Source: an uncultured Parcubacteria group bacterium (GTDB taxonomy: Bacteria > Patescibacteriota > Minisyncoccia > UBA6257 > 2-01-FULL-56-20). Taken from it: a stretch of 49,465 nucleotides of DNA. Shown here one piece after another: positions 10,431 to 49,465 of this stretch. Under the pieces are notes generated by a model. It saw only the letters and a program-made list of their open reading frames with translations, made no database searches and was not told the origin of the DNA. Every line of letters begins with the position of its first letter. The first letter of the stretch is position 1. The stretch covers positions 1 through 49,465 of the forward strand of contig CAJAQL010000005.1 of the NCBI GenBank assembly GCA_903944135.1, in the 5' to 3' direction. The position numbers and the translations under genes are program-made.

Positions 10431-10680
10431 CCGTCATTTCGAACGAAGCCTGCTTCGAGGTTTTCCGAGCGGCAAGGAATTCCTTTTTCTGTCGTCCCCG
10501 CCCCTCAACAGACTCGGGATAAACTCCGGCGGGGGATCCATGCTTCCGATCTTTTGCGTAAAGCACGGGTCCTTCAGCCAAGCCGGAGGATGACAGGAAT
10601 AAACATCGATTCCCGCTGGAACCTGTCTTCCGCACCCGCCCGTGCGGGTACAAGCTCCGGCCTACGCGGGGATGACGAGC
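10431..10680. repeat. cluster of GC-rich palindromic repeat units (degenerate type II plus extra hairpin units)
   Basis: Includes CTGTCGTCCCCGCC..CGGCGGGGGATCCATGCTTCC..AAAGCACGGG..GGAGGATGACAGG and CGCGGGGATGACGAG. The cluster lies inside the long ORF that opens at 10395. Confidence 0.75.
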
Positions 10681-11936
10681 GGATTGGAGGTTTCACTCTC
10701 GTCGAACTTCTGGTGGTCATCATGATCGTCGCTATCCTCTCGATCGTGGTCGTTCTCACGATGAACATTCCCGAACTCTTGAGGCAATCGCGCGACAGTT
10801 CGCGGCTTTCGGATATAAAAACACTGAACGGCGCCGTGACGTTCTATCTTAACGAACTGCCGGGCGGGAATTTAGGTTCGTCGACCACTATCTATGTTTC
10901 CTTGCCGGACAAAACGATCTCGGGAAACACCACGTCCACGTGCACGTCGCTTAATTTACCTACGCCGCCCACGGGTTATAGCTATCAATGTTCTTCGCCG
11001 CAGGCGTATCGCCACGTCGACGGCACGGGGTGGATGCCAGTGAATCTTGCCCAGCTTTCGTCCGGCTCGCCAATCTCGGTTTTGCCGGTTGATCCCGCAA
11101 ACCAGACATCTACTGATCTTTACTATACCTATACCGCAAATGGCGGGAGTTATGTTTTTACCAGTTTTTTTGAATCGCAGAAGGATGCCAAGATGATGGA
11201 AAACAGTGGCGGATCTGATGCTTCCGTTTATGCGGTCGGAACTAATCTCACCGCACCGGATGTTGGAAGGGGTTTTGTCGGTTATTGGCCGATGGACGAG
11301 GGGACGGGAACTATGGCTTACGATCAGTCGGGGGCAGGAAATAATGGGGCATTGATCAACGGACCTACATGGATAGCGGGTAAAATAAATAGCGCCTTAA
11401 GCTTCAATGATAGTAATTCATATGTTTCTGTTTCGGATACCTCTACCTTGGAGTACGTCGGAGGCAATATGACCTTGGCGGCGTGGATCAACGTGAACAG
11501 CACGGAAACGACCGGTGGGTGGATTTTCTCCAAACCGTGGAATGGGGGTGGTCAATATAACTATACAGTTACGCTTAACTCGAATAATACGCTTAGTTTT
11601 GGAATCGTTGGTTCTGGTTCTTACTCTATTTCCACCACTGCGGTCATACCATCTAATTCTTGGCATTATATTGCCGCGACGGTAAATTCCAGTGGCCAAA
11701 TGTCTATTTATATCGACGGTAATTTAAGTGCCTCCGGGACAGATGGTATTGTGGGTTGGACTCCATCATCTGGCAACGGTAGCATTCCTTTGAGCATAGG
11801 GACTCTCTATCCGTACGGAACTGGTTCATGGACCCATTCGAATTTTACATTCGGTGGTTTAATAGATGATGCGAGGATCTATAACAGAGCATTGTCTGTC
11901 ACTGAAATTAAGGCGATCTATAACGCGGAAAAGTGA
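10590..11936 (+). CDS. large pilin-like protein with C-terminal LamG/concanavalin-like domain
   Basis: GG|FTLVELLVVIMIVAIL class III signal at about 10685. C-terminal GYWPMDEG...GLIDDARIYNRALSVTEIKAIY is LamG-like. The ORF is open from 10395; the nearest in-frame ATG before the signal is 10590, so the start is uncertain. Confidence 0.7.
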   Translation: MTGINIDSRWNLSSAPARAGTSSGLRGDDERIGGFTLVELLVVIMIVAILSIVVVLTMNIPELLRQSRDSSRLSDIKTLNGAVTFYLNELPGGNLGSSTTIYVSLPDKTISGNTTSTCTSLNLPTPPTGYSYQCSSPQAYRHVDGTGWMPVNLAQLSSGSPISVLPVDPANQTSTDLYYTYTANGGSYVFTSFFESQKDAKMMENSGGSDASVYAVGTNLTAPDVGRGFVGYWPMDEGTGTMAYDQSGAGNNGALINGPTWIAGKINSALSFNDSNSYVSVSDTSTLEYVGGNMTLAAWINVNSTETTGGWIFSKPWNGGGQYNYTVTLNSNNTLSFGIVGSGSYSISTTAVIPSNSWHYIAATVNSSGQMSIYIDGNLSASGTDGIVGWTPSSGNGSIPLSIGTLYPYGTGSWTHSNFTFGGLIDDARIYNRALSVTEIKAIYNAEK

Positions 11937-11974
11937 CGAAAAAATCATTGCAATAATGCAATGATTTTTTCGTC
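11935..11974. terminator. bidirectional intrinsic terminator hairpin
   Basis: Perfect 18-bp stem GACGAAAAAATCATTGCA/TGCAATGATTTTTTCGTC with a 4-nt loop, between convergent genes. Confidence 0.7.
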
Positions 11975-12082
11975 ATCCTCGATCTAGTCGGGGATCCGTG
12001 CTCTTTATAAAAATATTGAAAGCACGGGTCATCCGCTTGCGCGGGTGAAAACAAAGATTCCTCGACAAGCTCGGAATGACGG
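11971..12082. repeat. GC-rich palindromic repeat locus (type II plus type III unit)
   Basis: CGTCATCCTCGATCTAGTCGGGGATCCGTGCTC..AAAGCACGGGTCATCCGCTTGCGCGGGTG, then GATTCCTCGACAAGCTCGGAATGACGG. Confidence 0.8.
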
Positions 12083-12088
12083 ATAATT

Positions 12089-13615: not shown

Positions 13616-13646
13616 CTGTCGTGGTCCCGGGAGCGGGACGATGACT
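13616..13646. repeat. solo hairpin unit of the repeat family
   Basis: CTGTCGTGGTCCCGGGAGCGGGACGATGAC, between apbE and the reductase gene. Confidence 0.6.
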
Positions 13647-14412: not shown

Positions 14413-14467
14413 AAAAGTATTTATTGTGTCATGGTCTAACTCGGCCGGGCCCCCATACTGTTCTTTG

Positions 14468-14560
14468 GTCGTCGTCCGATCTAGTCGGACGATCCGTGCT
14501 TTAAAATCTCAGAAAAAAGACCGGAAGCACGGGTCCTCCGCCTCTGCGGAGGACGACAAG
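14468..14560. repeat. GC-rich palindromic repeat, type II
   Basis: GTCGTCGTCCGATCTAGTCGGACGATCCGTGCTTT..GGAAGCACGGGTCCTCCGCCTCTGCGGAGGACGACAAG. Confidence 0.85.
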
Positions 14561-15132: not shown

Positions 15133-15176
15133 AAAAAGTCCGCCTTAGCTACAGCTGTCAGCTAAGGCGGACTTTT
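15133..15176. other. strong A/T-flanked hairpin between divergent gene starts
   Basis: AAAAAGTCCGCCTTAGCT / AGCTAAGGCGGACTTTTT arms with a short central loop (ACAGCTGTC). Confidence 0.6.
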
Positions 15177-15248
15177 TGTCGTTCCCGCGCAGGCGGGGAT
15201 CCAGGTTTATTTTCTTTTTTGGGGTCTCCGCTTTTGCGGGGACGACAG
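15177..15248. repeat. GC-rich palindromic repeat, type I
   Basis: TGTCGTTCCCGCGCAGGCGGGGATCCAGG..GGGGTCTCCGCTTTTGCGGGGACGACAG. Confidence 0.8.
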
Positions 15249-16576: not shown

Positions 16577-16777
16577 CTGTCATCGTCCCTGGAGAGGGGA
16601 CCTGTGCTTCCTGATCTTTCTTTTAACTTTTAAAAGCATGAACCCTCCGTCTTCGCGGAGGGTGACAGAAATAAATTCTGTCGTCCCCGTGCAGGCGGGG
16701 ATCCAGAAGAAAGAGCCTGGACCCTCGCTTTTGCGAGGATGACTGAATCGCTAAGCTCGCAAAGCGATTCTCGTCAT
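16577..16777. repeat. repeat cluster (type II, type I, extra hairpin)
   Basis: CTGTCATCGTCCCTGGAGAGGGGACCTGTGCTTCC..AAAAGCATGAACCCTCCGTCTTCGCGGAGGGTGACAG, then CTGTCGTCCCCGTGCAGGCGGGGATCCAG..CTGGACCCTCGCTTTTGCGAGGATGACTG. Confidence 0.85.
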
Positions 16778-16844: not shown

Positions 16845-17573
16845 ATGTTTTTGCATAGAATCAAGAAAAATATAAAAATGAACAAAAGAAAAATAGGAAA
16901 GAAAAGGGGTTTTACCCTTATTGAATTACTGGTGGTTATCGCGATTATCGCGATTCTTTCGGTTGTGGTCGTTTTGACGTTGAATCCCGCAGAAATGCTG
17001 CGTCGGTCGCGCGATTCAAACCGCGCATCCGATCTTTCGATGATCAAAACATCGCTCAGCTTGTACCTTGCCGATGTTTCTTCGACAAACCTAGGAACGG
17101 CGGGAATTTGCTATGTGCAGCTTGCTCCTGGCGTGACTCATGCTGCAAACTGGGAATTCGCTTCGACTACGGCAAACGAAAATGGTGCGACGGTTACTGA
17201 TGCCATTACTAGTTCGGCAACGGAATGCGGAAATTGGTTCTCAACCGCCGGTGCTACGGTTGCGAACGCCACTTCTAGCCGTTCCGTTTCTGGAACGGGA
17301 TGGATTCCGGTTATTCTTACCAACATAAGTTCTGGAGCTCCGATCGGACAATGGCCAGCAGATCCAGCATTTTCTCTTGGGTCGAGCGGAACCGGAAATG
17401 CTTTTGCGGGTCACTTCTATTCCTACATTATGTCGAATACAAATAATGGATATAAGCTTGCCGCAAAGATGGAAAGTGCATTGTATTCGAACCAGGGTTC
17501 GAGTGATTTGGAATCGACCGATGGCGGCACCGATCTCAATATGTACGAACAAGGAACTACTCTCACGCTCTAA
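16845..17573 (+). CDS. type IV pilin-like protein
   Basis: KKRG|FTLIELLVVIAIIAILSVVVV class III signal. An alternative start is at 16878 (MNKRK). Confidence 0.75.
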   Translation: MFLHRIKKNIKMNKRKIGKKRGFTLIELLVVIAIIAILSVVVVLTLNPAEMLRRSRDSNRASDLSMIKTSLSLYLADVSSTNLGTAGICYVQLAPGVTHAANWEFASTTANENGATVTDAITSSATECGNWFSTAGATVANATSSRSVSGTGWIPVILTNISSGAPIGQWPADPAFSLGSSGTGNAFAGHFYSYIMSNTNNGYKLAAKMESALYSNQGSSDLESTDGGTDLNMYEQGTTLTL

Positions 17574-17594: not shown

Positions 17595-17620
17595 GAAAAA
17601 CGCCCGCAAGGGCGTTTTTC
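17595..17620 (+). terminator. intrinsic terminator after the pilin gene
   Basis: GAAAAACGCCC gcaa GGGCGTTTTTC. Confidence 0.7.
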
Positions 17621-17640: not shown

Positions 17641-17762
17641 TGTCGTCCCCGTGAAAACGGGGACCCAGGTTCATCTCGAAAAATTCTGGATCCCCGCCTG
17701 CGCGGGGACGACAGAAAAAGATTTGGATCGCGGGTCATCCGCCTGCGCGGAGAATGGCGGAA
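17641..17762. repeat. repeat cluster (type I plus extra hairpin); its last 75 nt are identical to 18371-18445
   Basis: TGTCGTCCCCGTGAAAACGGGGACCCAGG..CTGGATCCCCGCCTGCGCGGGGACGACAG..GGGTCATCCGCCTGCGCGGAGAATGGCGG. Confidence 0.85.
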
Positions 17763-18308: not shown

Positions 18309-18445
18309 TGTCATGGTCCGCGGAGGCGGACGGCTCGTGCTTTCAGTTTTCTCTCTGTTTTTTAAGGCATGGATCCCCGCCTGCGCGGGGACGACAGAAA
18401 AAGATTTGGATCGCGGGTCATCCGCCTGCGCGGAGAATGGCGGAA
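18309..18445. repeat. repeat cluster (type II-like plus extra hairpin)
   Basis: TGTCATGGTCCGCGGAGGCGGACGGCTCGTGCTTT..AAGGCATGGATCCCCGCCTGCGCGGGGACGACAG..GGGTCATCCGCCTGCGCGGAGAATGGCGG. Confidence 0.85.
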
Positions 18446-18477
18446 AAATTTACGGAAATAGCAGAACAATTTTTATC

Positions 18478-20340
18478 ATGGAAGAATATAATCCGAACGC
18501 GGTTTGGACGAGCAAAAAGAAGAAGGTTGTTTACACACCTCCGGAGCCGATTCATCTTCCGTCAGTGGCTGATGGCGGACGTGGAAATGTGCCGCCTTCG
18601 GAAAACAAGGGTGGATCCGGAAAGAAGGTGGTGATCATCGCGATTATCATCGTTCTTCTTGGCGGTGCCGCCGGCGCATGGTTCTTTTTGAACCGACCGG
18701 TCGTTGCGCCCGCAGTCGGACTCGATTTCGCATCGGAGAATCAGATCGCGGCCGGAGCAACGACCACTTTTTCGGTGCTTTACACGAACAGCTCGACGGT
18801 GGCATTGCGCAATGCATCGCTCGTGATCTCTTTGCCGGATGGCGTATTTTTCTCGGGACAGCCCGACAGCGAGCGGACAGCCACGATCGCGCTTGGCGAC
18901 GTCGCGGCCGGCGCGGCCGGAAAAGAGGACGTGACGATCCTTGGGACGTCTGCGGCCGGAAGCGTCGTGCAGGTAAGCTCGACGTTATCCTATGCGACCG
19001 ATGCATCGCGCGGCGTTTTGTTCACGACCTCAAAGGAATCCAGCCTGGCGATCGGTACGCCGGTCATCGATCTCGCCATTTCACCTCCTTCCAATGTTTT
19101 TGCGGGGCAGGATTTCACGACGAAGGTGTCTTATGAAAATGCGACGGATCATCCGATCGACGGAGTGAAGATCACCATGCAATATCCTGATGGATTTGCA
19201 TTCACGGAGGCGTCGCCGATACCCGCGTTTCCGGGCGACACGATCTGGAACATCGGCACGGTTCCTGCGGGCGGCGGAGGAACGATCCTTATTACGGGAT
19301 CGATGACCGGCAAAAATACGGCGCTCTATTCGCTTTCGGGAACAGCAGAGGAAAGCATTGCGGGGACATCTTATCCGGTTGCGGCGGTTGCGGCGAATGT
19401 CTCGATCACGGCAACGCCGCTTACGATCGGCGCGGTCGTGAATAATACGCCCGACTATGTTGCGGAGCTCGACGATAATCTTGACTATAAGATCACCTAC
19501 GCGAATCTATCGAACACCACGTTCCAGAATGTCGCGATCACGGCGACGTTCGCGGGCGCGATGTTCGATCAAAGTTCCGTGGATAGCGTCGGCGCGTATA
19601 ATTCGCTCACGAATACGCTTACCTGGTACGCCGCAAATACCCCTTCGCTCACATCGGTCGCACCGGGCGGGAAAGGTTCGGTCGAGTTTCGCATCAAAAC
19701 AAAACCATCGTTCCCGATCGCATCGGCTGCGGACAAGGACTTTGCGCTCGGACTGCATCTTGCGATAAGTTCTCCGACTGTTCCTGCGGGTACAGCGGCA
19801 AGCTCGACATCGGCGTCGATGGACGTCACGAACAAAGTCAACGGCGCGATCGCCATTGATGCCGCCGGATATCGCTATGAACCAGGATCGGGCATCGCGA
19901 ACTCAGGCCCCTATCCACCGCAGGTGAACCAGGAAACGCTCTATACCGTTCATTGGCGCGTGACAGATTATTCGACCGATGTGAGCGGCGTGAGTGTCTC
20001 CGCATATCTGCAATCCGGTGCGACATGCACCGGGAAGGTGATGAGTACGATTGCGGCGGTACCGGTTTGCAATGCCGCAACCGGAGAAGTGACATGGGAC
20101 ATCCCGAGCATCTCCGCCGGAACCGGCGTTTTGGGCGCTCCGGCCGAAGCTGTTTTTCAGGTCGAGAACATGCCCGCCGCGAACCAGGTTGGGAAAGTAG
20201 TGACGCTTCTCGGGAAAACATCGCTTACCGCGACCGATGAATTTACGGGTGGCGCGCTTACCGCATCGGCGAATTCCGTTGGAACCGATATTCCGGAAGA
20301 TACCGCCGTGACGACGAATGAACGGAACGTGACAAAATGA
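18478..20340 (+). CDS. membrane-anchored surface protein with repeated beta-sandwich-like (DUF11/CARDB-like) segments
   Basis: Start taken at MEEYNPNAVW. One TM segment (VVIIAIIIVLLGGAAGAWFF), then repeated segments of the pattern ..Y.N.S..... V.I...LP.G..F. The upstream part of the ORF (18313-18477) is repeat sequence. Confidence 0.55.
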   Translation: MEEYNPNAVWTSKKKKVVYTPPEPIHLPSVADGGRGNVPPSENKGGSGKKVVIIAIIIVLLGGAAGAWFFLNRPVVAPAVGLDFASENQIAAGATTTFSVLYTNSSTVALRNASLVISLPDGVFFSGQPDSERTATIALGDVAAGAAGKEDVTILGTSAAGSVVQVSSTLSYATDASRGVLFTTSKESSLAIGTPVIDLAISPPSNVFAGQDFTTKVSYENATDHPIDGVKITMQYPDGFAFTEASPIPAFPGDTIWNIGTVPAGGGGTILITGSMTGKNTALYSLSGTAEESIAGTSYPVAAVAANVSITATPLTIGAVVNNTPDYVAELDDNLDYKITYANLSNTTFQNVAITATFAGAMFDQSSVDSVGAYNSLTNTLTWYAANTPSLTSVAPGGKGSVEFRIKTKPSFPIASAADKDFALGLHLAISSPTVPAGTAASSTSASMDVTNKVNGAIAIDAAGYRYEPGSGIANSGPYPPQVNQETLYTVHWRVTDYSTDVSGVSVSAYLQSGATCTGKVMSTIAAVPVCNAATGEVTWDIPSISAGTGVLGAPAEAVFQVENMPAANQVGKVVTLLGKTSLTATDEFTGGALTASANSVGTDIPEDTAVTTNERNVTK

Positions 20341-20365
20341 GGTTGAACCTCGCTGTTTGTCCCAT

Positions 20366-20478
20366 TGTCGCGGTCCCGGGAGCGGGACCATCCGTGCTTC
20401 CAGTTTTTCCTTCTCTTTTTACAAAGCACGGACCCTCCGTCTTCACGGAGGGCGACAAAAAATACAGGAGGATGACGG
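20366..20478. repeat. GC-rich palindromic repeat, type II
   Basis: TTGTCGCGGTCCCGGGAGCGGGACCATCCGTGCTTCC..CAAAGCACGGACCCTCCGTCTTCACGGAGGGCGACAAAA. Confidence 0.85.
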
Positions 20479-20541
20479 AAAATGAGCTAAATTTTATCGT
20501 TGCGATTGCAAATATCTTTTAAGTACGCTTTAATCTTTCAT

Positions 20542-21932: not shown

Positions 21933-21998
21933 CTGTCGTCCCGGCGGAAACCGGGATCCAGGTTTTTTCTCTGGATCCCGTTTTATAACGGGATGACA
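21933..21998. repeat. GC-rich palindromic repeat, type I
   Basis: CTGTCGTCCCGGCGGAAACCGGGATCCAGG..CTGGATCCCGTTTTATAACGGGATGACAAC. Confidence 0.85.
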
Positions 21999-23305: not shown

Positions 23306-23332
23306 AACCTATCTCCAGAATATCCATCCGGC
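23305..23332. repeat. half-copy of the CCTATCTCAAAAA family
   Basis: GAACCTATCTCCAGAATATCCATCCGGC, directly at the murA stop. Compare 33131-33158. Confidence 0.55.
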
Positions 23333-23351
23333 TTTCGCGGTCAAATATGAT

Positions 23352-24640: not shown

Positions 24641-24646
24641 GGGGTT

Positions 24647-24655
24647 ATTTTAGCA
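24647..24655 (-). promoter_or_regulatory. extended -10 box 6 nt upstream of the recR ATG
   Basis: Minus strand reads TGcTAAAAT, aacccc, ATG. Confidence 0.5.
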
Positions 24656-24663
24656 TGTTTCAT

Positions 24664-24780
24664 GCGTCATTCCGAGAGTGTTTAAATCGCGTCATCCTCG
24701 GGCCTGGCCCGAGGGACCCGTGCTTAAGGTTTAAGAAAAAGCAAAGAAGCACGGATACTCCGCCTTCGCGGAGGATGACG
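24664..24780. repeat. repeat locus (type III fragment plus type II)
   Basis: GCGTCATTCCGAGAG.., then GCGTCATCCTCGGGCCTGGCCCGAGGGACCCGTGCTT..GAAGCACGGATACTCCGCCTTCGCGGAGGATGACG. Confidence 0.85.
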
Positions 24781-35952: not shown

Positions 35953-35953
35953 T

Positions 35954-36031
35954 CGTCATGTCGAGCCACGCGAGACATCTCGAAGAATAGTAATTATTTC
36001 ACGAGATTCCTCGTACGGCTTGGAATGACGG
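35954..36031. repeat. type III-like repeat units
   Basis: CGTCATGTCGAGCCACGCGAGACATC and GATTCCTCGTACGGCTTGGAATGACGG. Confidence 0.65.
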
Positions 36032-36059
36032 GGGCAATGGGAGTCGGGACGCGATTTTG

Positions 36060-36068
36060 TGTTATCAT
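36060..36068 (+). promoter_or_regulatory. extended -10 box 7 nt upstream of ATG 36076
   Basis: TGtTATCAT, tattcat, ATG. Confidence 0.45.
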
Positions 36069-36075
36069 TATTCAT

Positions 36076-38103
36076 ATGATGGACGACGACATGCAGGATC
36101 TTACCCCGCTCGGGGTTTATAATTTCCGCCATCAACAGAAGAAATTCGGCATCAAGCTCGACGACCGCCGCCGGCATATTTATGTTATCGGAAAGACCGG
36201 CGTCGGGAAGACGACGCTTCTCGAGAATATGGCGATCGCCGATATGCGATCAGGCAAGGGGCTTGCGTTCGTCGATCCGCACGGCGAATCAGCGGAAAAG
36301 CTGCTCGACTTCGTGCCGGAGAACCGCCTGGACGATGTGATCTATTTCGATCCATCTGATATGGAATTTCCGATCGCGTTCAATCCGATGGAGCAGGTCG
36401 GTACCGAGTACCGGCATTTGGTGGCGTCGGGGCTCATGGGAGTGTTCAAAAAGATCTGGGCCGACGCGTGGTCGGCGCGCATGCAATATATTTTGAACAA
36501 CACCCTGCTCGCACTCCTTGAAAATCCCGGCGCGACGCTTTTGGGGATCCTTCGCATGTTCTCGAACCAGGATTATCGGAAACAGGTCGTGGACAATCTG
36601 AAGGACCCGGTCATCAAAGCATTCTGGCAGGATGAATTTTCAAAATACAGCCAGCGATTCGAGACCGAAGCCTTGGCTGCAATTCAGAACAAAGTCGGCC
36701 AGTTCGTTTCGAATCCGCTGGTCAGGAACATTCTTGGCCAGCCTCATTCGTCGCTCAACATGCGCGACATCATGGATTCTGGGAAGATATTCATCTGCAA
36801 TCTCTCCAAAGGGAAGATCGGCGAGGATAATTCCGCGCTTCTCGGCGCCATGATCATCACGCGCATGCAGCTTGCCGCAATGTCGCGCGTCGATACGCCC
36901 GAGGACAAGCGCCGCGATTTTTTCCTGTACGTCGATGAATTCCAGAACTTCGCGACGGAATCCTTTGCGAACATCTTGTCTGAAGCTCGCAAGTACCGCC
37001 TGAGCCTGGTTCTCGCGCACCAGTATATCGGCCAGCTGATGACGGGCGACAGCACGTCGGTTCGCGATGCCGTGTTCGGCAATGTGGGTACGATCATTTC
37101 GTTCCGTGTGGGTGCAGCGGATGCTGAATATCTGGAACAGGAATTTATGCCGGAATTCCTGCAGAACGATTTCGTTAATCTATCGAAAGCGAATGTTTAT
37201 ATCAAACTGATGATCGACGGCGTCTCTTCGCGCCCGTTTTCCGCGGAGACCTTGCCGCCGCAGAAGATACCGCTCGAATCCTATCGCGATGTGATCATAA
37301 AAAATTCCCGCGAGCATTACGGTACGCCGAAGAGCGTCGTTGAAACGCAGATCGCGAGCGAATGGCGCTCCGGTCCGGGCAATGTATCCGCAACAAGACC
37401 CGAACGGCAGCAAGAGAAGCGATTGTCCGAGGTGCTCGGTCCCGGCGCCCGCCAAAGAAAAGCGTCCGATGTGCGCAATGTCCGCGACGTGGAGCCTCGA
37501 CCCACGGTGGCGTTGAGGGCAGCGGTCCCGGTCGTTCAGACGGAGAAAGATCCGGTGCCGGAAAAAACCGCAGGGGATGATCCTCGTGCCAATATCGATC
37601 AGCCTTCCAAAAAAGTCATGCATCCGAACGTCGACATCGACGCCCTGAAGCAAGCCATCCATCATTCGCTAGAAGCTCGTTCAAAGAACACGGGATCTGT
37701 TTCCGCGCAAACGGCAACAGGAAGTGCTCGCGCGGAAAACACCCGTATCGTCCGAGTTCCCGTAAGCGAAACGCCCCCCGAAGAACCAGGACAGAAAAAA
37801 GAAGAGGAACTTCAGGGCGGTATGATGCATCTTTCCGATCTTTCAAAATTGCCGCCAAAAGAAAAACATGGCATCGTTACGCATAACGATGACCGCGAAA
37901 AGGGTGACCACGAAGAAGAGACTGATACCAATCAGAGCCATGATGCCAAGTCCGCAGCTATTGCATCGTCCGAAGACGAAGACCCGAATGCTTCGAATGA
38001 TGCATCACGCACGACTCAACAAAACAATTCCGGTTCAAAGATCGACATCAGCGCACTGAGAGAAGCAATTGGTGAAATCCAGAAGAAACGGCATGCCAAG
38101 TGA
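36076..38103 (+). CDS. TraD/VirD4/TrwB-like coupling-protein-type ATPase, no TM anchor, about 230 aa disordered C-terminal tail
   Basis: Walker A IGKTGVGKTT, FVDPHGE, Walker B-like FFLYVDEFQNF, ARKYRLSLVLAHQ. The tail is rich in E/K/S/T/P with two (V/I)DIxALxxAI motifs. Confidence 0.7.
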   Translation: MMDDDMQDLTPLGVYNFRHQQKKFGIKLDDRRRHIYVIGKTGVGKTTLLENMAIADMRSGKGLAFVDPHGESAEKLLDFVPENRLDDVIYFDPSDMEFPIAFNPMEQVGTEYRHLVASGLMGVFKKIWADAWSARMQYILNNTLLALLENPGATLLGILRMFSNQDYRKQVVDNLKDPVIKAFWQDEFSKYSQRFETEALAAIQNKVGQFVSNPLVRNILGQPHSSLNMRDIMDSGKIFICNLSKGKIGEDNSALLGAMIITRMQLAAMSRVDTPEDKRRDFFLYVDEFQNFATESFANILSEARKYRLSLVLAHQYIGQLMTGDSTSVRDAVFGNVGTIISFRVGAADAEYLEQEFMPEFLQNDFVNLSKANVYIKLMIDGVSSRPFSAETLPPQKIPLESYRDVIIKNSREHYGTPKSVVETQIASEWRSGPGNVSATRPERQQEKRLSEVLGPGARQRKASDVRNVRDVEPRPTVALRAAVPVVQTEKDPVPEKTAGDDPRANIDQPSKKVMHPNVDIDALKQAIHHSLEARSKNTGSVSAQTATGSARAENTRIVRVPVSETPPEEPGQKKEEELQGGMMHLSDLSKLPPKEKHGIVTHNDDREKGDHEEETDTNQSHDAKSAAIASSEDEDPNASNDASRTTQQNNSGSKIDISALREAIGEIQKKRHAK

Positions 38104-38119
38104 TTTTATGTCGAATGAT

Positions 38120-38205
38120 CTGTCATTCCGAGCCTGCGAGGAATCTTTGTTCCCGTTCCCGTGCCTGTGCCTGCCTATGCAGGTATAGGCTCCGGCGGGG
38201 ATCCG
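38120..38205. repeat. type III unit plus degenerate GC-rich repeat
   Basis: CTGTCATTCCGAGCCTGCGAGGAATC ... GGCTCCGGCGGGGATCCGGG. Confidence 0.7.
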
Positions 38206-38225
38206 GGTTTTTTTAAAACTATTTC

Positions 38226-38984
38226 ATGCAGTTTCATGTCATAACCATTTTCCCTGATATTTTCGATTCGTATATCCGCGAATCGCTTTTTAAGCGCGCG
38301 ACGGAGAATAAAATCGTTTCGGTGAATTCCTACAATCTCCGCGATTTCACGGAAGAGCGGCACCGCAAGGTAGACGATCGGCCGTTCGGCGGCGGACCGG
38401 GAATGGTTTTGCAGATCCAGCCGGTCTATGATGCCGTGAAATCTATCAAGCAAAAAGCGGCGAAACGGAAGAAAAAAAGAAAAGTGCGAACAATCCTGTT
38501 TTCGACGCGCGGCAAGAAGCTCGATGCAAAAGAAGCGAAACGATTATCGAAATACGACGATCTCATTTTGATCTGCGGCCGCTACGAAGGCGTGGACGAG
38601 CGCGTAGCGGAACATGTGGCGGATGAGGAAATCTCGATCGGGGATTACATCCTTTCCGGCGGTGAACTGCCTGCCATGGTGCTTATGGAATCCGTGAGCC
38701 GCTTCATTCCCGGATTTCTTGGGAAAGAAGAGTCTCTCGAAGAAACGAACGGTTCATTCCCGACCTATTCCCGTCCCGAAGTCTTTTATCCTTCTTCGTC
38801 ACGCGTGGCGACGCACCTGTCGCCCTCGTCCTTCGGAATGCCTCAGGGTAAACTCCGGCGAGGATCCGTGCTTTCCTCGTTATCTTCGAACAAGAGAAAA
38901 ACAACCGGTTGGCCTGTTCCCAAGATCCTCCTTTCCGGCGACCACAAAAAGATCGCCAAATGGAGAAAACAACAGTCTGACTAA
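38226..38984 (+). CDS. trmD: tRNA (guanine37-N1)-methyltransferase with a 40-aa insertion in the interdomain linker
   Basis: FDVITIFP-like MQFHVITIFPDIF, DDRPFGGGPGMVL, ICGRYEGVDERV, SIGDYILSGGELPAMV, YSRPEVF ... VPKILLSGDHKKIAKWR. Confidence 0.9.
   Translation: MQFHVITIFPDIFDSYIRESLFKRATENKIVSVNSYNLRDFTEERHRKVDDRPFGGGPGMVLQIQPVYDAVKSIKQKAAKRKKKRKVRTILFSTRGKKLDAKEAKRLSKYDDLILICGRYEGVDERVAEHVADEEISIGDYILSGGELPAMVLMESVSRFIPGFLGKEESLEETNGSFPTYSRPEVFYPSSSRVATHLSPSSFGMPQGKLRRGSVLSSLSSNKRKTTGWPVPKILLSGDHKKIAKWRKQQSD
38787..38906 (+). repeat. repeat-family sequence inserted in frame within trmD
   Basis: CTGTCGCCCTCGTCCTTCGGAATGCCTCAGGGTAAACTCCGGCGAGGATCCGTGCTTTCC closely parallels the intergenic copy at 10489-10556. 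Confidence 0.7.
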
Positions 38985-38988
38985 GATT

Positions 38989-39558
38989 ATGCAGAAGGAA
39001 ATAGAAACAAGATTTCTTGATATAGACAAGGATGACCTCGTGAGGAAGCTTACTTTACTTGGCGCTATCGATCGGGGCGAAGAAAAATTGGCGGAAATCA
39101 TTTTTCATGCCGCAGACATGTCGTGGGCCGGGAAGAATAAATTCGTGCGACTCCGCAAAACGAAAGAGAAGATAAAGCTGACATATAAAGAAAATAGAGG
39201 GCAAACCGTGGATAGTGCGCAGGAGATTGAGTTTGATGTCTCGGACATCGATCAATGTTCCGAGTTGTTGCATGTGGTCGGCTTGGAGCCGATACGACAC
39301 CTCGAAAAATATCGGCACACCTTTAAGCTTGGCGATGTGACGATTGATATTGATTCCTGGCCAAAAATTCCCGCTTACGTGGAACTGGAAGGACCATCGG
39401 TGGAATCTCTTGAAGAAGCTTGCGGCAAATTGGATATGGATTGGGAAAAAAGATTCGACAGTGATGCGCGGGAAGTATTCCGGCGTTACGGTTATGACTT
39501 AGATAATATTACGGTGATTACATTCAGTGAGCTTAAGTATAGAGATTCGGCTATTTAA
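38989..39558 (+). CDS. CYTH-domain protein (class IV adenylyl cyclase / triphosphatase family)
   Basis: N-terminal EIETRFL (ExExK-like motif), VRLRKTKEKIKLTYK, IDIDSWPKIPAYVELEG. The ORF upstream of 38989 is an alternative frame of trmD. Confidence 0.7.
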   Translation: MQKEIETRFLDIDKDDLVRKLTLLGAIDRGEEKLAEIIFHAADMSWAGKNKFVRLRKTKEKIKLTYKENRGQTVDSAQEIEFDVSDIDQCSELLHVVGLEPIRHLEKYRHTFKLGDVTIDIDSWPKIPAYVELEGPSVESLEEACGKLDMDWEKRFDSDAREVFRRYGYDLDNITVITFSELKYRDSAI

Positions 39559-39593
39559 CCTGAATTTAATCTTCATTCTGCCATGCTTTTATC

Positions 39594-41102
39594 ATGGTAG
39601 ATTTTTTTATCAGTGATTTAGTCTGCGCCATGGCGGCGGGTTTACTTGTCGGGATGCTGACTGTTGGTTTCAAGTGGAATATCGCGGCAATTTCTTTTTG
39701 TGTCGTGCTTGTTGCACCGGCGTTAAAATATTTTTGGTCGAAATCATGGAAAACATCGGTTATTTTCACGCTGATAGTTTTCTTTTCGATTCTGGCTGGC
39801 GGATATTATTTTCATCTTTTTGTGAATCTGCGGGCGGCTGGACAGCGATTGCCGGATGGGAAGAATTTTTTCGACGCAGTCGTTGTGAGCGAACCTGCGG
39901 CGTCGGAAAAATATCTTTCGTTCTCTGCGGAGCTTCAGCCGCCGTTCGCGGGAAAGGTTTTGATGTTTGCGCCGCCGGAAAGCGAGATTCGCTACGGCGA
40001 TCTTGTAGAAGTTTCAGGGACGTTTGCGGCAGGGGACACAAATGCCGCGCCCACGATCTTTTTGAAAAAAATATCCGTCGTTTCGGAAGGGCATGGATCA
40101 TGGCTTATCGCGAAGCTTGGCGATTTTAAAAGAGCAATTTTGCAGATATTTTCTCGTGCATTGCCGCAGGATGATGCGGCGCTTCTCGGTGGCATGACTT
40201 TAGGCGGGACGGCGGGCATGAGCGTGGCATTAAAGAACGATATGACCGAGTCGGAAACGCTTTACGTAACGTCGATGTACGGCTGGAAGATCGCGATGAT
40301 CGTTATGATGATCGAAACGCTGCTTGCCGGTTTTCTGCCGCGCCGGATCAGATTTTGCGTGAGCGCTTTCCTGATCGTTCTCTTTGTTCTGATGTCGGGC
40401 GGCAACGTTTCCGCGGTGCGCGGCGGCGTGATGGCGTATCTTCTCATGTTCGCCAAAGAAACAGGATCGGTATTTTCACGCAGGAACACGCTTCTTTTTG
40501 CCGCGGCCGGCATGGCGCTCTTCGATCCGACGATCGTCGCGCAAGCGGCATTTCTTTTGTCGTTTTTAAGCGTTGCCGGCATGGTGTTCCTTTCGGGGCC
40601 GATCCGAATATCTTTGCATCTTGGCGAAGGAAAAGGAGTTTTCGAATGGAAGAACGCGATTATCGTGAGCGTGGCATCTTTAGTGCCAATCGTGCCGCTC
40701 GTGAGCGCCATCTTCGGATCGTTTTCACTGACGGCCGTTTTTGCAAATATTCTGATCGCGCCAACGATTCCAATCGGCATGGGCGCGGGCATGGCGCTCG
40801 CCATCGCGGGATGTATTTCTCAGTATGCTGCATTTTTCATCGGGCGCGGCGTGGAGATATTTCTTTTCTATGCCCTCTGGGTCATCCATTTCTTTGCGGC
40901 GCACGTCGTACTTCTGCCATTTTCATTTTCCGGCATGATGCCGTTTGTGATCTATTATGCCGCGGTCGGATTTTTTGCGTACGCGTATCGCGAGGATGCA
41001 GTGCATCAAAAATGTCATTCCGTCTGCCCGCCGGGTCTTTGGCGAAAAAGGGAGCCTTGCGAGGAATCTATTTCAAACTGCATTCTCGAAAAAGAGAACT
41101 GA
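39594..41102 (+). CDS. comEC: ComEC/Rec2 DNA-uptake channel (DUF4131-like plus competence domain), lacking the MBL domain
   Basis: Polytopic membrane protein with GDLVEVSGTF (OB-like segment), LLGGMTLGG, and SGGNVSAVRGGVMAYLL, typical of the competence domain. Confidence 0.75.
   Translation: MVDFFISDLVCAMAAGLLVGMLTVGFKWNIAAISFCVVLVAPALKYFWSKSWKTSVIFTLIVFFSILAGGYYFHLFVNLRAAGQRLPDGKNFFDAVVVSEPAASEKYLSFSAELQPPFAGKVLMFAPPESEIRYGDLVEVSGTFAAGDTNAAPTIFLKKISVVSEGHGSWLIAKLGDFKRAILQIFSRALPQDDAALLGGMTLGGTAGMSVALKNDMTESETLYVTSMYGWKIAMIVMMIETLLAGFLPRRIRFCVSAFLIVLFVLMSGGNVSAVRGGVMAYLLMFAKETGSVFSRRNTLLFAAAGMALFDPTIVAQAAFLLSFLSVAGMVFLSGPIRISLHLGEGKGVFEWKNAIIVSVASLVPIVPLVSAIFGSFSLTAVFANILIAPTIPIGMGAGMALAIAGCISQYAAFFIGRGVEIFLFYALWVIHFFAAHVVLLPFSFSGMMPFVIYYAAVGFFAYAYREDAVHQKCHSVCPPGLWRKREPCEESISNCILEKEN
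41013..41068 (+). repeat. type III repeat forming the 3' coding end of comEC
   Basis: TGTCATTCCG...GCGAGGAATC (compare 38120-38145), with about 30 nt between the arms. Confidence 0.5.
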
Positions 41103-41108
41103 AATTCA

Positions 41109-41984
41109 ATGAATCAAAATCTCAAAAGATCAAACAAGCTTTTTCTTGTCGTTATGACTGCGTTTTTTGCATTTGATGTTTTCTGTTGGTATTCGATCTT
41201 CTCGAATGTACCCAATGCGTCGGCGCGCGCATATTTTTTGGATGTCGGACAGGGCGACAGCGAGCTCATGGTCTTTCCCGGTGGCGTCACCATGATGACG
41301 GATGCGGGTCCGACGGACGCCGTGCTTGGCGGTTTGGAAAAGGCATTGCCGGGGAAAAAATATATCGATCTCGCGCTCATCACACATCCGCAGCTCGACC
41401 ATTTCAACGGTTATAACTTCATTCTTGACCATTATGAAGTTGGCGCGTTCCTTTATAACGGGCGCGACGATACGGGTGTTGCGGAATGGACCGCGCTGAA
41501 AGAAAAGATCGCGGAGAAGCACATTCCCTTCATCACGCTCGGTGCGGGGGACCGTGTTCATTCGGGAAAAGACGAGGTTGATATCCTTTCCCCTGATCGC
41601 GAGTTCGGCGAAAGCGCGGAGCTGAACGATACCGGCCTTGTCGAGATGATAAAAACAGGGAATTTCCGCGCGCTTTTTACGGCGGACATCGGTTTCAATA
41701 TTGAAGATTGGCTCATCGCAAATATAAAAGATCTGCGCGCCGACGTGCTTAAGGTGCCGCATCATGGATCGAAATATTCCTCGGGCGATGCGTTTCTCCG
41801 TGCCGTGAATCCTTTGATTGCCGTGATCGAGGTTGGCGCAAAGAACGTGTATGGCCATCCCGGCGCGGCTACCTTGGCGCGGCTGGCGTCTTCGACGCGC
41901 GCCGAGGTTTTCCGCACCGATAAGAACGGCACCGTGGGGGTCTCTTATGAAAATGGGAAATTGAAAGTTGAAAGAGAGAAATAA
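41109..41984 (+). CDS. membrane-anchored metallo-beta-lactamase domain protein (ComEC C-terminal domain as a separate gene)
   Basis: N-terminal TM, FLDVGQGDSELMVFPGG, ITHPQLDHFNG (HxHxDH), VPHHGSKYS. Confidence 0.85.
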   Translation: MNQNLKRSNKLFLVVMTAFFAFDVFCWYSIFSNVPNASARAYFLDVGQGDSELMVFPGGVTMMTDAGPTDAVLGGLEKALPGKKYIDLALITHPQLDHFNGYNFILDHYEVGAFLYNGRDDTGVAEWTALKEKIAEKHIPFITLGAGDRVHSGKDEVDILSPDREFGESAELNDTGLVEMIKTGNFRALFTADIGFNIEDWLIANIKDLRADVLKVPHHGSKYSSGDAFLRAVNPLIAVIEVGAKNVYGHPGAATLARLASSTRAEVFRTDKNGTVGVSYENGKLKVEREK

Positions 41985-42065: not shown

Positions 42066-42081
42066 TTTTTGAGATAGGCTC
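42066..42081. repeat. single terminus of the CCTATCTCAAAAA family
   Basis: TTTTTGAGATAGGCTC, preceded by the hairpin CCGCTGGCAAC..GTTGCCAGCGG (42007-42058). Confidence 0.5.
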
Positions 42082-45186: not shown

Positions 45187-45257
45187 CTGTCGTCCCCGGG
45201 AAAACGGGGACCCAGGTTATTATCATTCTGGATTCCCGCCTGCGCGGGAATGACAAG
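45187..45257. repeat. GC-rich palindromic repeat, type I
   Basis: CTGTCGTCCCCGGGAAAACGGGGACCCAGG..CTGGATTCCCGCCTGCGCGGGAATGACAAG. Confidence 0.85.
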
Positions 45258-46796: not shown

Positions 46797-46870
46797 TGTC
46801 ATCCCGTTGAAAAACGGGATCCAGATTTGAAGAAGAAAAAACTGGGTTCCCGCCTGCGCGGGAACGACAA
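46797..46870. repeat. GC-rich palindromic repeat, type I
   Basis: CTGTCATCCCGTTGAAAAACGGGATCCAG..CTGGGTTCCCGCCTGCGCGGGAACGACAA. Confidence 0.85.
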
Positions 46871-46932: not shown

Positions 46933-48612
46933 ATGACCGATGCACCGAAAGGGCAAGATGATCTTCATTCGCAGCTCGCGAAGATCCGGCGTGCCGGCGA
47001 GGAGCGCGCGGCGGAGCGTCTTGCGGAAAAATTAGGATATCCTTATGCCGACCTCTCCAAAATGCCGGTTTCTTTGGATGCCGTTCGTACGATCCCTGAG
47101 GCTGATGCGCGCGACGGGAAGATATCCGCCATCGAGGTACGCGACAAGAAGATCGCTGTCGTCGCAGTGAATCCGATCTTGCCCGCAACCATGAAGGCGC
47201 TCAATGATCTTGCCGCACAGAAGTACGAGACGAAAGTCTTCGTGGTGTCGCCATCAAGCCTGGAGGCGGCATTTGCCCTATATAAGTTCGTGAAGCCGCC
47301 GACGGAGTCCGTTGCGGGTAAAGTCGCCATTTCAAAGAATCGTCTCGAAGAGTTAACGGGCCAGCTCGTGACGCTTGAAGCCATCCATACTACGATCATG
47401 AATCTGGACTTTACGAAAGCTTCACCGAGCGATCTTATCCAGATATTGTTCGCGGGAGCGCTTGCGGTCCATGCGTCTGATATTCACACTGAAGCAGGGG
47501 AAAAGCAGGCAAAGATCCGTTTCCGCGTGGATGGCCTTTTGCATGATATCTGCGATCTTCCGCTTCCGTTCTATGCCAATTTCGTCTCACGCGTGAAATT
47601 GCTTTCGGAGATGAAAATCAATGTCCGGAACGAAGCGCAGGACGGGCGCTTCACGATCAATCTTGCTGGCAAGGATATCGAAATGCGCGTTTCGGTCATT
47701 CCGGCGGAGTTCGGCGAAACGATCGTCATGCGTGTTCTTGATCCGTCGGCTACGATGGTCGGTTTGCCGAGCCTTGGTTTGCGCACCGACAATCTCGTGA
47801 TCGTAAAGAGGGCGCTCGACCGGCCGAATGGCCTTATTTTAAACACTGGCCCGACGGGCTCCGGCAAAACGACGACGCTCTACGCATTTCTTCGTTCCGT
47901 GAACAGTCCGGAGATGAAGATCATCACGCTTGAAGATCCGATCGAATACCGCATCGAGGGCATTGAACAGACCCAAGTGGATGAGGAGGCGGGATACACG
48001 TTCGCGAACGGCCTTCGCGCCATCGTCCGGCAGGATCCTGACGTGATCCTCGTCGGCGAAATCCGCGATCTCGAAACGGCTGATATTGCCATGCAATCGG
48101 CTTTGACCGGACATCTCGTGCTCTCGACGCTCCATACGAACGACGCGGTCGGTGCCGTACCGCGGCTCATCAATCTTGGCGTGAAAGCGGTTTCGATCGG
48201 GCCGGCATTGGCGCTCGTGATCGCCCAGAGGCTGGTTCGCGTGCTATGCCCCGAGTGTAAAAAGGAAGTACCTATCGATGACGCAATGAACGAAAAAATA
48301 AAAGCATTGCTTGCCCGTTTGCCTGCGCAGGTCGACAAAACGCTCTATGAGCATCCGACGTTTTTCGCTCCGGTCGGTTGCCCTAAATGCAACGGCATTG
48401 GTTATAAAGGGCGCGTTGGTATTTTTGAATTTCTGGAAGGCGGTCCCGATCTTGAAACTACGATACTTCATGAGGCGTCCGAAGTTGCGCTCCGCGAAGT
48501 GGCGAAACGACAGGGGATGGTCTCGATGCAGGAAGACGGAATCCTAAAGGCGATCGAAGGAAAGACGACGCTCGATGAAGTAAAGGATGCGACCGGTGAG
48601 CTTGCGTGGTGA
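46933..48612 (+). CDS. pilB: second PilB/GspE-family pilus assembly ATPase (diverged paralogue)
   Basis: GPTGSGKTTT, LVGEIRD, LTGHLVLSTLHTND, CPECK...CPKCNG, and an N-terminal T2SSE_N-like region. Confidence 0.9.
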   Translation: MTDAPKGQDDLHSQLAKIRRAGEERAAERLAEKLGYPYADLSKMPVSLDAVRTIPEADARDGKISAIEVRDKKIAVVAVNPILPATMKALNDLAAQKYETKVFVVSPSSLEAAFALYKFVKPPTESVAGKVAISKNRLEELTGQLVTLEAIHTTIMNLDFTKASPSDLIQILFAGALAVHASDIHTEAGEKQAKIRFRVDGLLHDICDLPLPFYANFVSRVKLLSEMKINVRNEAQDGRFTINLAGKDIEMRVSVIPAEFGETIVMRVLDPSATMVGLPSLGLRTDNLVIVKRALDRPNGLILNTGPTGSGKTTTLYAFLRSVNSPEMKIITLEDPIEYRIEGIEQTQVDEEAGYTFANGLRAIVRQDPDVILVGEIRDLETADIAMQSALTGHLVLSTLHTNDAVGAVPRLINLGVKAVSIGPALALVIAQRLVRVLCPECKKEVPIDDAMNEKIKALLARLPAQVDKTLYEHPTFFAPVGCPKCNGIGYKGRVGIFEFLEGGPDLETTILHEASEVALREVAKRQGMVSMQEDGILKAIEGKTTLDEVKDATGELAW

Positions 48613-48707
48613 TCTTTTCTCTCGTCCCGGTGCATGAGACATGTCCCTTTTTTATCCTGAAACTTGCCTAAAGAAGCTGTTCCTTGGGTAAGTTTTTCTT
48701 GTCATAG

Positions 48708-48716
48708 TGATATAAT
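48708..48716 (+). promoter_or_regulatory. extended -10 box 6 nt upstream of ATG 48723
   Basis: TGaTATAAT, ttctcc, ATG. Confidence 0.5.
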
Positions 48717-48722
48717 TTCTCC

Positions 48723-49465
48723 ATGTATCATCGTTTTTCTCACGAGGCTTTCACCCTGATCGATCCCCGTCTTCACGGGGATGACAAGAGGTTTCAAGGC
48801 TTCACCTTGATTGAATTGTTGATCGTGATCGCCATCATCGCCATCCTCAGTATCGTCGTCGTCCTCACCCTCAACCCCGCAGAGATGCTCCGTCAGGGCA
48901 GGGACAGCAACCGCTCCTCTGATCTCGATACCCTGACCCATGCCTTATCCCTCTATCAGACGGACCAATCGGTAACGAGCGGATCGGGTTCCCTCGGCTC
49001 ATCCACCCTCATCTATCTCTCCCTGCCGGACAGCTCAAGCACCTGCGGCTCCTGGAATCTCCCGTCTCCTCCCGCGGGCTACAGCTATCAGTGCGCTCCC
49101 ACGAGTTCCTACCGGAATACGAATGGTCAGGGCTGGATCCCCGTGAACCTCGCTTCCACGACGACCGGGAATCCTCTGGGCCAGCTTCCGATAGATCCCA
49201 CGAATGCCTCTTCCTCCGGCCTCTATTACGCCTATACGACGAACGGCATCCAGTATGAGGTCACGTCCCTCTACGAATCAAGCAAATACAAGGCATCATC
49301 AGCCCAGAATCCAACGATTCCTTCCTATCCCGAGGTCAACGCCAAAGGATCAAATCTTGCCCTGAATCCGCTCTTCAGTTCCCAGGGACTTGTCGGTTAT
49401 TGGCCTCTCGATGAAGGCAATGGATCTACGACCCAGGATCTGTCGGGCAACGGGAATACGGGAAC
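48723..49465 (+). CDS. LamG-type large pilin, paralogue of 10590-11936 (partial; runs off the window)
   Basis: Not in the ORF track because there is no stop in the window. My translation: MYHRFSHEAFTLIDPRLHGDDKRFQG|FTLIELLIVIAIIAILSIVVVLTLNPAEMLRQGRDS...GYSYQC...GLVGYWPLDEGNGSTTQDLSGNGNTG, collinear with the 10590 gene. Confidence 0.75.
   Translation, partial: MYHRFSHEAFTLIDPRLHGDDKRFQGFTLIELLIVIAIIAILSIVVVLTLNPAEMLRQGRDSNRSSDLDTLTHALSLYQTDQSVTSGSGSLGSSTLIYLSLPDSSSTCGSWNLPSPPAGYSYQCAPTSSYRNTNGQGWIPVNLASTTTGNPLGQLPIDPTNASSSGLYYAYTTNGIQYEVTSLYESSKYKASSAQNPTIPSYPEVNAKGSNLALNPLFSSQGLVGYWPLDEGNGSTTQDLSGNGNTG
48755..48788 (+). repeat. single repeat hairpin unit inside the pilin leader-peptide coding region
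   Basis: CTGATCGATCCCCGTCTTCACGGGGATGACAAG, translated as LIDPRLHGDDK. Confidence 0.7.

Follow-up and report, generated by a model that had tools for sequence, protein, structure and literature searches.

What are the hairpin repeats that occupy gap after gap between the genes of an uncultured Parcubacteria group bacterium, and in which process do they take part? We addressed this question on contig CAJAQL010000005.1, analysed over 49,465 nucleotides and referred to here as the window. The contig is a metagenome assembly product, and the homologs of its MurA (72-75% identity) carry the names Candidatus Paceibacterota or Minisyncoccia, which places the host of the repeats, on homology, among the Patescibacteria (candidate phyla radiation, CPR) as a member of the Paceibacteria/Parcubacteria. 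An earlier note on this DNA had described the repeats as one nested-palindromic element of 65-95 nt with an architecture of its own. Instead, we found that the repeating entity is a much smaller hairpin unit, which by its sequence features belongs to the CGTC-tagged repetitive extragenic palindromes (REPs), the class of the Neisseria dRS3/NTS repeats and the "Ssn-related motifs" (SRM). With moderate confidence we propose that the units are single-stranded DNA (ssDNA) hairpins recognized by nucleases of the Ssn type, that they spread as the ends of gene cassettes and as gene-less dimers, and that they likely affect ssDNA recombination.

The repeats lie where the earlier note had placed them and far exceed chance. 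A tag-plus-hairpin scan of the window detected 33 units, compared with 7.8 in dinucleotide shuffles, and a covariance model built on 17 real units (alignment A2, real sequences only) re-found these 17 at E = 1e-6 to 1e-9 together with further units, all of them within 10.4-48.8 kb. The AT-rich island at the left end of the window is free of copies, as previously noted; the covariance-model search returned only one chance-level match there (E = 0.41). The published SRM search pattern matched the window four times versus 0.31 in shuffles, a 13-fold enrichment, and the class termed type III occurs in three full copies where 0.16 are expected. Our census counted about 45 units, comprising about 20 inverted pairs in addition to solo units and fragments, at a density of about one unit per kb of host sequence. 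The earlier wording that they cover nearly every intergenic gap was slightly overstated: of the 30 intergenic gaps of the host that measure 60 nt or more, 22 contain units. After correction of mis-called starts, no unit was found inside any real gene. The repeats are also no assembly artefact of this contig, because an independent Logan assembly is 100% identical across 3.9 kb including two of the pairs, and because orthologous copies are present in other metagenomes and metagenome-assembled genomes (MAGs).

The unit measures about 28-30 nt. A (C/T)GTC tag that stays unpaired precedes a stem of 8-9 bp closed by a 4-5 nt loop, and behind the stem follows a tail, again unpaired, with C as its first base. 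The stem begins with AT or GT, paired with AT or AC, and a few units deviate by 3- or 6-nt loops or 10-bp stems. Type I units combine an 8-bp stem and a 4-nt loop with the tail CCAG. In type II units, the stem and loop measure 9/4 or 8-9/5, and the tail is CCGTGCTT, which starts with CC but differs from CCA at the third base and is longer, making it a variant tail. Type III units have the core GTCATTCCGAG-loop-CGAGGAATC, and we infer that their stem closes only with two tandem G.A mismatches; the nearest-neighbour DNA model predicted no stable fold for this type. Four alignment columns of A2 are invariant, namely G2, T3, and C4 (the GTC before the stem) and C25 (the C after it). All 16 distinct window units have the GTC, preceded mostly by T and sometimes by C, as do all 29 distinct rows with a letter at this position among units from relatives, and the CCA tail is found in 14 of 16 type I units.

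The units are nearly always paired with their tags outward as head-to-head (HH) dimers: in all of the roughly 20 pairs, a plus-strand unit is followed by a minus-strand unit, and neither head-to-tail nor tags-inward pairs occurred. What had been called inner clamps, as if they were a module of their own, are the two unit tails seen in inverted orientation, and the nested-palindrome appearance is the product of this HH arrangement. When folded as ssDNA, heterodimers give a four-way junction and near-homodimers one long hairpin, and the dimer folds are far more stable than those of shuffled sequences (z = -4 to -6).

This anatomy has been published. CGTC-tagged REPs bear the tag CGTC at their terminus, in many cases as TGTC and with CCTC also permitted, 8-9 bp stems whose first two pairs are A-T, loops of 4-5 nt, and a CCA tail, and they are organized mainly as HH dimers with the tags outside, frequently as heterodimers, with no dedicated transposase (Di Nocera, De Gregorio and Rocco 2013, PMC3733652). 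Neisseria dRS3 constitutes the family CGTC-1, and the Rickettsia repeats RPE-4/6 are CGTC-tagged REPs as well (PMC3733652). The dRS3 repeat was later extended to the 28-nt NTS, CGTCATTCCCGCGMAVGCGGGAATCYRG, and to the degenerate SRM (Chenal et al. 2025, PMC11893778). The type I dimer at 45188-45255 of the window contains as its right unit (45228-45255, minus strand) the sequence TGTCATTCCCGCGCAGGCGGGAATCCAG, which is one mismatch away from the NTS consensus. The window units share with the CGTC-1 HH dimers the CGTC/TGTC tag, the AT-starting 8-9 bp stem, the 4-5 nt loop, and the short CCA-type tail, and they likewise form tags-outward pairs and heterodimers in intergenic positions, give rise to spurious N-terminal extensions of open reading frames (ORFs), and lack a linked transposase. 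They differ in their Patescibacteria host, in the longer conserved type II tail, in nested long-stem variants, and in their density of about one unit per kb. Most of them also fail the strict SRM pattern, having GTCGT instead of GTCWY. The suggestion of an intergenic family resembling REPs and bacterial interspersed mosaic elements (BIMEs) was therefore borne out, whereas the claim of a separate architecture was not. The repeats are not a new type of genetic element, because their architecture is already described; what is new is the host phylum, the extended type II tail, the density, and an apparent pairing between ssn paralogs and unit classes. Among the papers searched, we found no report of REPs in Patescibacteria.

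The proposal of an ssDNA ligand comes from the enzyme of the Neisseria system. SsnA, a GIY-YIG protein of 94 aa, recognizes the hairpin exclusively in ssDNA and cleaves directly upstream of it; the C that follows the palindrome is crucial for binding, and the three bases that precede the palindrome are crucial for cleavage (PMC11893778). The GTC before the stem and the C after it, which are the invariant positions of our units, are the positions that SsnA needs for cleavage and binding, respectively. Moreover, an ssn gene usually has copies of its own motif on its flanks (PMC11893778). We looked at whether the stems have been kept as structures and where ssn genes lie in relation to the units.

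For the first question, we assembled a type II set from the window and related loci solely by the tail CCGTG(C/T)TT with a GTC 19-27 nt upstream, because choosing units on their pairing would have been circular. In the 30 distinct units of this set, 79.6% of the stem positions were Watson-Crick paired, compared with 56.7 +/- 2.8% when the 3' arms were shuffled among units, with a maximum of 65.8% in 2000 shuffles. Both C-G and G-C were present at four stem positions. In the window, a strong hairpin lies just upstream of 14 of the 19 CCGTGCTT tails, with at least ten different stems. Alignments A2 and A3 agree in showing six of eight pairs changed on both sides, although these sets were chosen or fitted using pairing and lean to structure. 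The unit stems thus covary. The earlier note had observed conserved termini and clamps with varying but complementary stems, which these numbers substantiate, and had named a lack of covariation as the outcome that would speak against it; the stem pairing lay well above that of shuffled partners.

Comparison of orthologous copies gave a graded picture. The tag had the fewest substitutions (2/68) and the loop the most (15/69), with the tail (10/136) and the stems (30/262) in between. Among 128 pairs compared between orthologs, eight were changed on both sides and still paired, as opposed to about 0.5 expected from independent hits, whereas 12 had single-sided changes, five to G.T, five to A.C, and two others; one or two of the comparisons possibly involve paralogs. 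Because several of the eight compensated changes are switches to another common unit variant, unit replacement or conversion is as likely an origin as point-wise compensation. The idea of selection on structure is partly supported by the complementarity across the family and by the excess of compensated changes, but weakened by those that look like variant replacement, by the 12 uncompensated changes, and by copies that collapse and turn over. The same data bear on the possibility that the repeats have no current function and are decaying remnants of a past burst, their complementarity stemming from birth as good hairpins and from quasi-palindrome correction in replication. Orthologous copies do gain uncompensated stem changes, mutated tags, and deletions, many copies are degenerate, and the resemblance of several compensated changes to whole-variant replacement would fit such a history. 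However, conservation is much higher in the tag and at the first base of the tail than in the stems, the loops, or coding sequence, at least ten near-perfectly paired stem variants are hard to obtain by decay alone, and cassettes are swapped between strains that are 99.8% identical, indicating ongoing activity. We regard decay as the least probable of the explanations considered here.

If structure is selected, it could be selected in RNA, as the earlier note had allowed. Transcribed hairpins or four-way junctions might stabilize upstream mRNA, pause or terminate transcription, or insulate genes, as proposed for REP/BIME of E. coli and for many CGTC and GTAG REPs, and an RNA-level function is favoured by Di Nocera et al. 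for many REPs (PMC3733652). The location of most units between tandem or convergent genes near stop codons agrees with this, as do the stability of the folds over shuffles and the G.T combination, which is the commonest at the first stem position on the tag strand and would form a G.U pair in RNA. Nevertheless, dimers are also found in three divergent gaps, HH dimers are symmetric and hence have no orientation bias relative to transcription, only a few units are followed by a T-run, and separate canonical terminators exist, in many cases separating the dimer from the end of the gene (17595-17620, 27003-27022, 11934-11975). Single-sided ortholog changes to G.T and to A.C were equal (5 vs 5), and SsnA does not bind RNA (PMC11893778). 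The Rfam search, which the earlier note had suggested, retrieved from the window only two tRNAs and a LOOT RNA at gathering score and no family at the repeats. No result points specifically to RNA as the selected structure, and the best-supported ligand partner of this class is an ssDNA-specific nuclease. We consider an RNA-level role unlikely.

For the second question, we scanned 185,579 species genomes (one genome per species) with the type II core pattern ATCCGTGCTT..AAGCACGGAT. The scan yielded 34 matches, of which 26 were ordinary terminators or chance matches in unrelated phyla and eight CPR loci were kept; true family copies occurred only in the Patescibacteria MAGs DAIBYH01, CAZWWZ01, and CAZADL01. 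A metagenome scan added 32 contigs rich in the unit family of the window. A hidden Markov model (HMM) from 120 GIY-YIG homologs detected small single-domain GIY-YIG genes in related Paceibacteria contigs. Their products of 95-107 aa match Pfam PF01541 (E = 1e-13 to 5e-19), and at least three ssn paralogs are encoded in one MAG. A PDB search with the product of one paralog, Ssn-B, gave a weak match to 1ZG2 only. In four of four cases (loci L065, L044, L086, and L088), the two tails of a type II HH dimer precisely enclose the ssn-B gene, and the bounding units share their classes with the window units at 28554, 29396, 20366, and 27058. Another paralog, ssn-A (in L052, identical to P0009 and seen in at least ten samples), is flanked by type III units identical to 38122-38144 and 12057-12080 of the window.

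In a side observation on these genes, the ssn ORFs read through the downstream hairpin unit (L052 8303-8329; L044 2940-2975) and take their stop from the tag region (AATGAC, GACTAG), and their last 10-12 residues in L052 and L044 are therefore encoded by the repeat.

The association with ssn genes resembles the arrangement known from Neisseria: relatives of the window carry single-domain GIY-YIG genes of about 95 aa with the motif on both sides (SRM-ssn-SRM), the conserved GTC and C agree, one unit is a near match to the NTS consensus, and the host has natural-competence genes. It differs in that the window itself has no ssn gene, in that stem diversity greatly exceeds that of the Neisseria NTS, in that several ssn paralogs seem matched to distinct unit classes in one small genome, and in that the ends of the ssn-B cassette seem to be reproduced by a short dimer without a gene. 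A pairing between paralogs and unit classes had been anticipated in general terms by the Ssn authors (PMC11893778).

The inverted ends and the many gene-less copies raise the question of whether the repeats are classical selfish miniature inverted-repeat transposable elements (MITEs) moved by a non-Ssn transposase encoded elsewhere, such as a REP-associated tyrosine transposase (RAYT), an IS200-IS605-type Y1 enzyme, or another one, with the ssn genes as passengers or frequent insertion targets. Like MITEs, for example the Correia elements of Neisseria, the repeats are short, non-coding, and intergenic, with inverted ends in many copies; their presence varies among relatives and the array content even between close ones, empty sites exist, and the family has expanded in one clade to a high copy number. 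REP-RAYT pairs also provide a precedent for hairpin repeats, since the REP/BIME of E. coli and Pseudomonas are short intergenic hairpins in inverted pairs and mosaic arrays, associated with a gene for a small nuclease or transposase that has its own repeats on either side. In contrast to those systems, the tag is (C/T)GTC rather than the GTAG of RAYT-linked REPs, and the associated enzyme is a GIY-YIG nuclease instead of a Y1/HUH protein. No Y1 (RAYT) or other transposase was detected when the main ORFs of the window were scanned against Pfam, in accordance with the earlier note; the sole recombinase is a serine recombinase of the unrelated AT-rich island. A published survey linked no transposase to CGTC REPs (PMC3733652). 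Unlike those of MITEs, the dimer ends show no evident target-site duplication and are themselves stem-loops, and units also occur singly and recombined into mosaics; the boundaries of gains and losses relative to locus L048 are not clean. The precise position of ssn-B between the two tails in all four cases is not predicted by a passenger model. The dimers do have a gene-bearing counterpart, the ssn-B cassette. Movement by such a transposase appears improbable to us.

We thus return to recognition by Ssn-type nucleases. In the proposed mechanism, the units would act as ssDNA hairpins that become exposed in replication, repair, or DNA uptake, and small single-domain Ssn-type GIY-YIG nucleases encoded elsewhere in the genome would recognize them, with paralogs matched to unit classes, ssn-B to type II and ssn-A to type III. 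Type II elements could be gene-less, MITE-like derivatives of an ssn-B cassette with the order tag, hairpin, CCGTGCTT, ssn gene, AAGCACGG, hairpin, tag. Recombination or the replacement of cassettes, and not a classical transposase, would spread the arrays and turn them over. If Neisseria SsnA is a guide, incoming or otherwise exposed ssDNA might be cut beside the hairpins, which could limit or shape recombination in a host with a full set of DNA-uptake genes. We infer binding and cleavage of the units by Ssn proteins, the MITE-like derivation, and the effect on transformation from these parallels.

Several points weigh against this proposal. Neither two regex scans nor the HMM from 120 homologs detected a GIY-YIG gene, of the ssn kind or any other, in the window, and the ssn-bearing contigs are tied to the genome of the window only via shared repeat classes and the identical type III units. 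Type I resembles the Neisseria NTS more than the other classes do, yet none of the ssn genes found has type I units at its flanks. The assignment of the CPR proteins to the Ssn family (cd10448) is provisional, resting on the Pfam GIY-YIG match, the size of about 95 aa, and the architecture. The activity of Neisseria SsnA is abolished by an altered stem sequence even when the hairpin is kept (PMC11893778), and therefore the diverse stems observed here cannot all suit a single enzyme of the SsnA kind, unless tolerance is greater in the CPR enzymes or paralogs are numerous. The homology between the spacers of gene-less dimers and the ends of the ssn-B cassette is suggestive only, because the spacers are short and AT-rich. 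Finally, all units, including those in the three divergent (promoter) gaps, are potentially transcribed, so that an effect at the RNA level is possible.

Relatives of the window revealed how the arrays change with divergence. In L010, which is 90% identical, all four dimers of 24.6-28.1 kb are in place, with one compensated A-T to G-C change plus uncompensated changes. In L048, with aligned blocks of 86-96% identity, the unit content differs gap by gap from that of the window. The loci L052 and L065 have flanks that are 99.6-99.9% identical, yet they carry entirely different ssn cassettes at one site. More distant relatives (73-81% MurA identity) lack units throughout 62 kb, and their gaps are tight. 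From these comparisons, it follows that the unit family is clade-specific, old enough to occur jointly in relatives at 80-90% identity, and still turning over. At the swapped site (L052 7848-8382 versus L065 5157-5840), the different ssn paralogs and hairpin arrays lie between a helix-turn-helix gene and a gene for a ClpB-like AAA+ ATPase.

One could go further and view the Ssn/hairpin system as an active, multi-paralog cassette family resembling insertion sequences, in which every paralog is bounded by a hairpin class of its own (type II for ssn-B, type III for ssn-A), sheds gene-less dimers into most gaps, and is swapped between near-identical strains, forming a self-marking layer of ssDNA restriction or recombination control on incoming DNA. 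We consider this extended view possible but doubtful. If it were true, natural matched sets of ssDNA nucleases and targets would exist in a single genome of about 1 Mb. The apparent one-to-one pairing of ssn paralogs and hairpin classes in any case offers candidate enzyme/site pairs for the ssDNA applications proposed for Ssn nucleases. The motif system of CGTC REPs and Ssn is hereby extended to Patescibacteria. Since the window encodes ComEC, two PilB, PilC, several N-methyl pilins, RecO, and RecR, a possible interplay of Ssn-type ssDNA cutting with DNA scavenging or transformation becomes testable in a new lineage. MurA, prolyl-tRNA synthetase (ProRS), and ABC transporters are encoded in the window as well.

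The individual copies range from dimers to solo units. The type I HH dimer at 15177-15247 consists of the units 15177-15204 (plus strand) and 15220-15247 (minus strand), with 8-bp stems, 4-nt loops, and the tail CCAG, and its units score E = 1.7e-8 and 1.2e-6 with the covariance model. Another type I dimer (17641-17713) lies just 3' of the canonical terminator at 17595-17620 and is followed by a unit fragment at 17730-17753. The type I dimer at 21934-21998 fills the gap between the genes for ProRS and MurA and has the same sequence in the independent Logan assembly, and a further type I dimer is found at 46797-46869. The unit pair at 18309-18396, composed of 18309-18335 (plus) and 18369-18396 (minus, with the tail CCAT), is spuriously translated as 'WIPACAGTT' at the mis-called start of ORF 18313. 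At 48759-48786 (minus), a solo unit without a partner has a perfect 8-bp stem and a 4-nt loop (E = 1.3e-7).

Among the type II HH dimers, the one at 14467-14558 has the tails CCGTGCTT and AAGCACGG and forms a four-way junction as ssDNA, and the one at 20366-20457 has a spurious 61-aa ORF called across it. The dimer at 24690-24780 occupies the divergent gap between the genes for RecR and DUF763 and is kept in L010 with uncompensated changes. The left unit of the dimer at 26074-26157 shows an A-T to G-C compensated change in the orthologs L010 and L057, whereas that of the dimer at 28554-28639, ATGGTCCCG gaag CGGGACCAT, is the unit class bounding ssn-B in L065 and L086. A hybrid type II/I dimer at 29396-29486 has the right tail CCAGTGCTT. 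At 13617-13646 (plus), a single hairpin with both tags represents a collapsed type II dimer, the full dimer being present at the L048 site.

Other loci combine classes. Two neighbouring HH dimers occupy 16578-16744, a type II dimer (16578-16667) with the degenerate tails CTGTGCTT/AAGCATGA and a type I dimer (16679-16744). A similar combination at 27058-27254 comprises a type II dimer (27058-27137) with its right tag mutated to GTTAT and a type I dimer (27188-27254) with a degenerate left unit, both of which are kept in the ortholog L010. At 11971-12080, a type II dimer (11971-12050) abuts the terminator at 11934-11975 and is followed by a type III unit (12057-12080, minus) equal to the one at the 3' end of ssn-A in L052. 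A type III HH dimer at 35955-36029 joins the unit 35955-35978 (plus) with a variant unit at about 36005-36029 (minus), their stems presumably closed by tandem G.A mismatches.

A longer nested variant also exists, in which GATYCCCGCYGGAGCCTG and CCGGCGGGGATGAC enclose an inner hairpin, so that an outer stem of about 15 nt carries a second hairpin in its loop. We found it in the window at 10600-10677, 31440-31495, and 38150-38206 and also in L028, L011, L031, and L065. Its first window copy (10600-10677, minus) belongs to the locus 10489-10677, upstream of the true start of a pilin-LamG gene, where it follows a type II dimer whose left unit has a 25-nt loop insertion (10489-10595). The second (31440-31495, minus) is paired with a type I unit (31402-31431, plus) in the locus 31402-31495. 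The third (about 38150-38206, minus) closes the locus 38122-38206, which begins with the type III unit 38122-38144 (plus), identical to the unit just 5' of ssn-A in L052.

The repeats mislead gene calling. ORFs start in or cross repeats at 18313-18477, 20337-20522, 10395-10679, and 24583-24786, and false N-terminal extensions of about 90 and about 70 residues result, the true starts lying downstream. We considered the tags as real start codons of the ABC and FtsX genes but rejected this, because better internal starts are present. As the hairpins yield spurious ORFs and wrong starts in CPR genomes, they should be masked before gene calling.

Intrinsic terminators were likewise rejected as the identity of the units: a handful of units are terminator-like, but T-runs precede rather than follow the dimers, and separate canonical terminators are present; the scan itself discriminates poorly. 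A bidirectional-terminator-like structure, a perfect 18-bp hairpin with A-run and T-run flanks, lies at 15133-15177 in a divergent gap, where it abuts a type I dimer. The orthologous gap in L048 is without the 18-bp hairpin and contains other units.

The window also contains a second, unrelated repeat family with the inverted ends CCTATCTCAAAAA..ATCCATCCGG / CCGGATGCCTGTTTTTGAGATAGG. Its loci at 8547-8596, 33134-33361, 42067-42078, and about 23309-23340 comprise one short copy, one copy of 228 nt, and two half copies, and they occupy gaps free of CGTC units. The 12-mer TTTTGAGATAGG of this family occurs five times, compared with 0.2 expected.

The genes for DNA uptake and transfer are dense at 6820-10391, 16845-17573, 36025-41984, and 46933-49465, a set that also holds at least five pilin-like genes and a VirD4/TraG-like ATPase; the metallo-beta-lactamase domain of ComEC is a separate ORF in the window. 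An origin from Neisseria, suggested by the dRS3-like hairpin, was ruled out, as the Neisseria DNA uptake sequence was looked for in the window and not found and the homologs are from Paceibacteria.

The GC content is about 52% from about 6.3 kb to the end of the window, and 37-47% in the AT-rich island (1-6252). The island encodes a D12 adenine methyltransferase (1637-2497) and a large serine recombinase (4775-6169) and adjoins the 3' end of a tRNA-Ala (6255-6329, minus strand). L048 is collinear with the window only from 6253 on and has a different sequence upstream, and the island is therefore a strain-specific integrated element. The match to the Rfam LOOT RNA (RF03000) lies inside it at 3809-3924 (minus), with 56.4 bits against a gathering score of 46.4.

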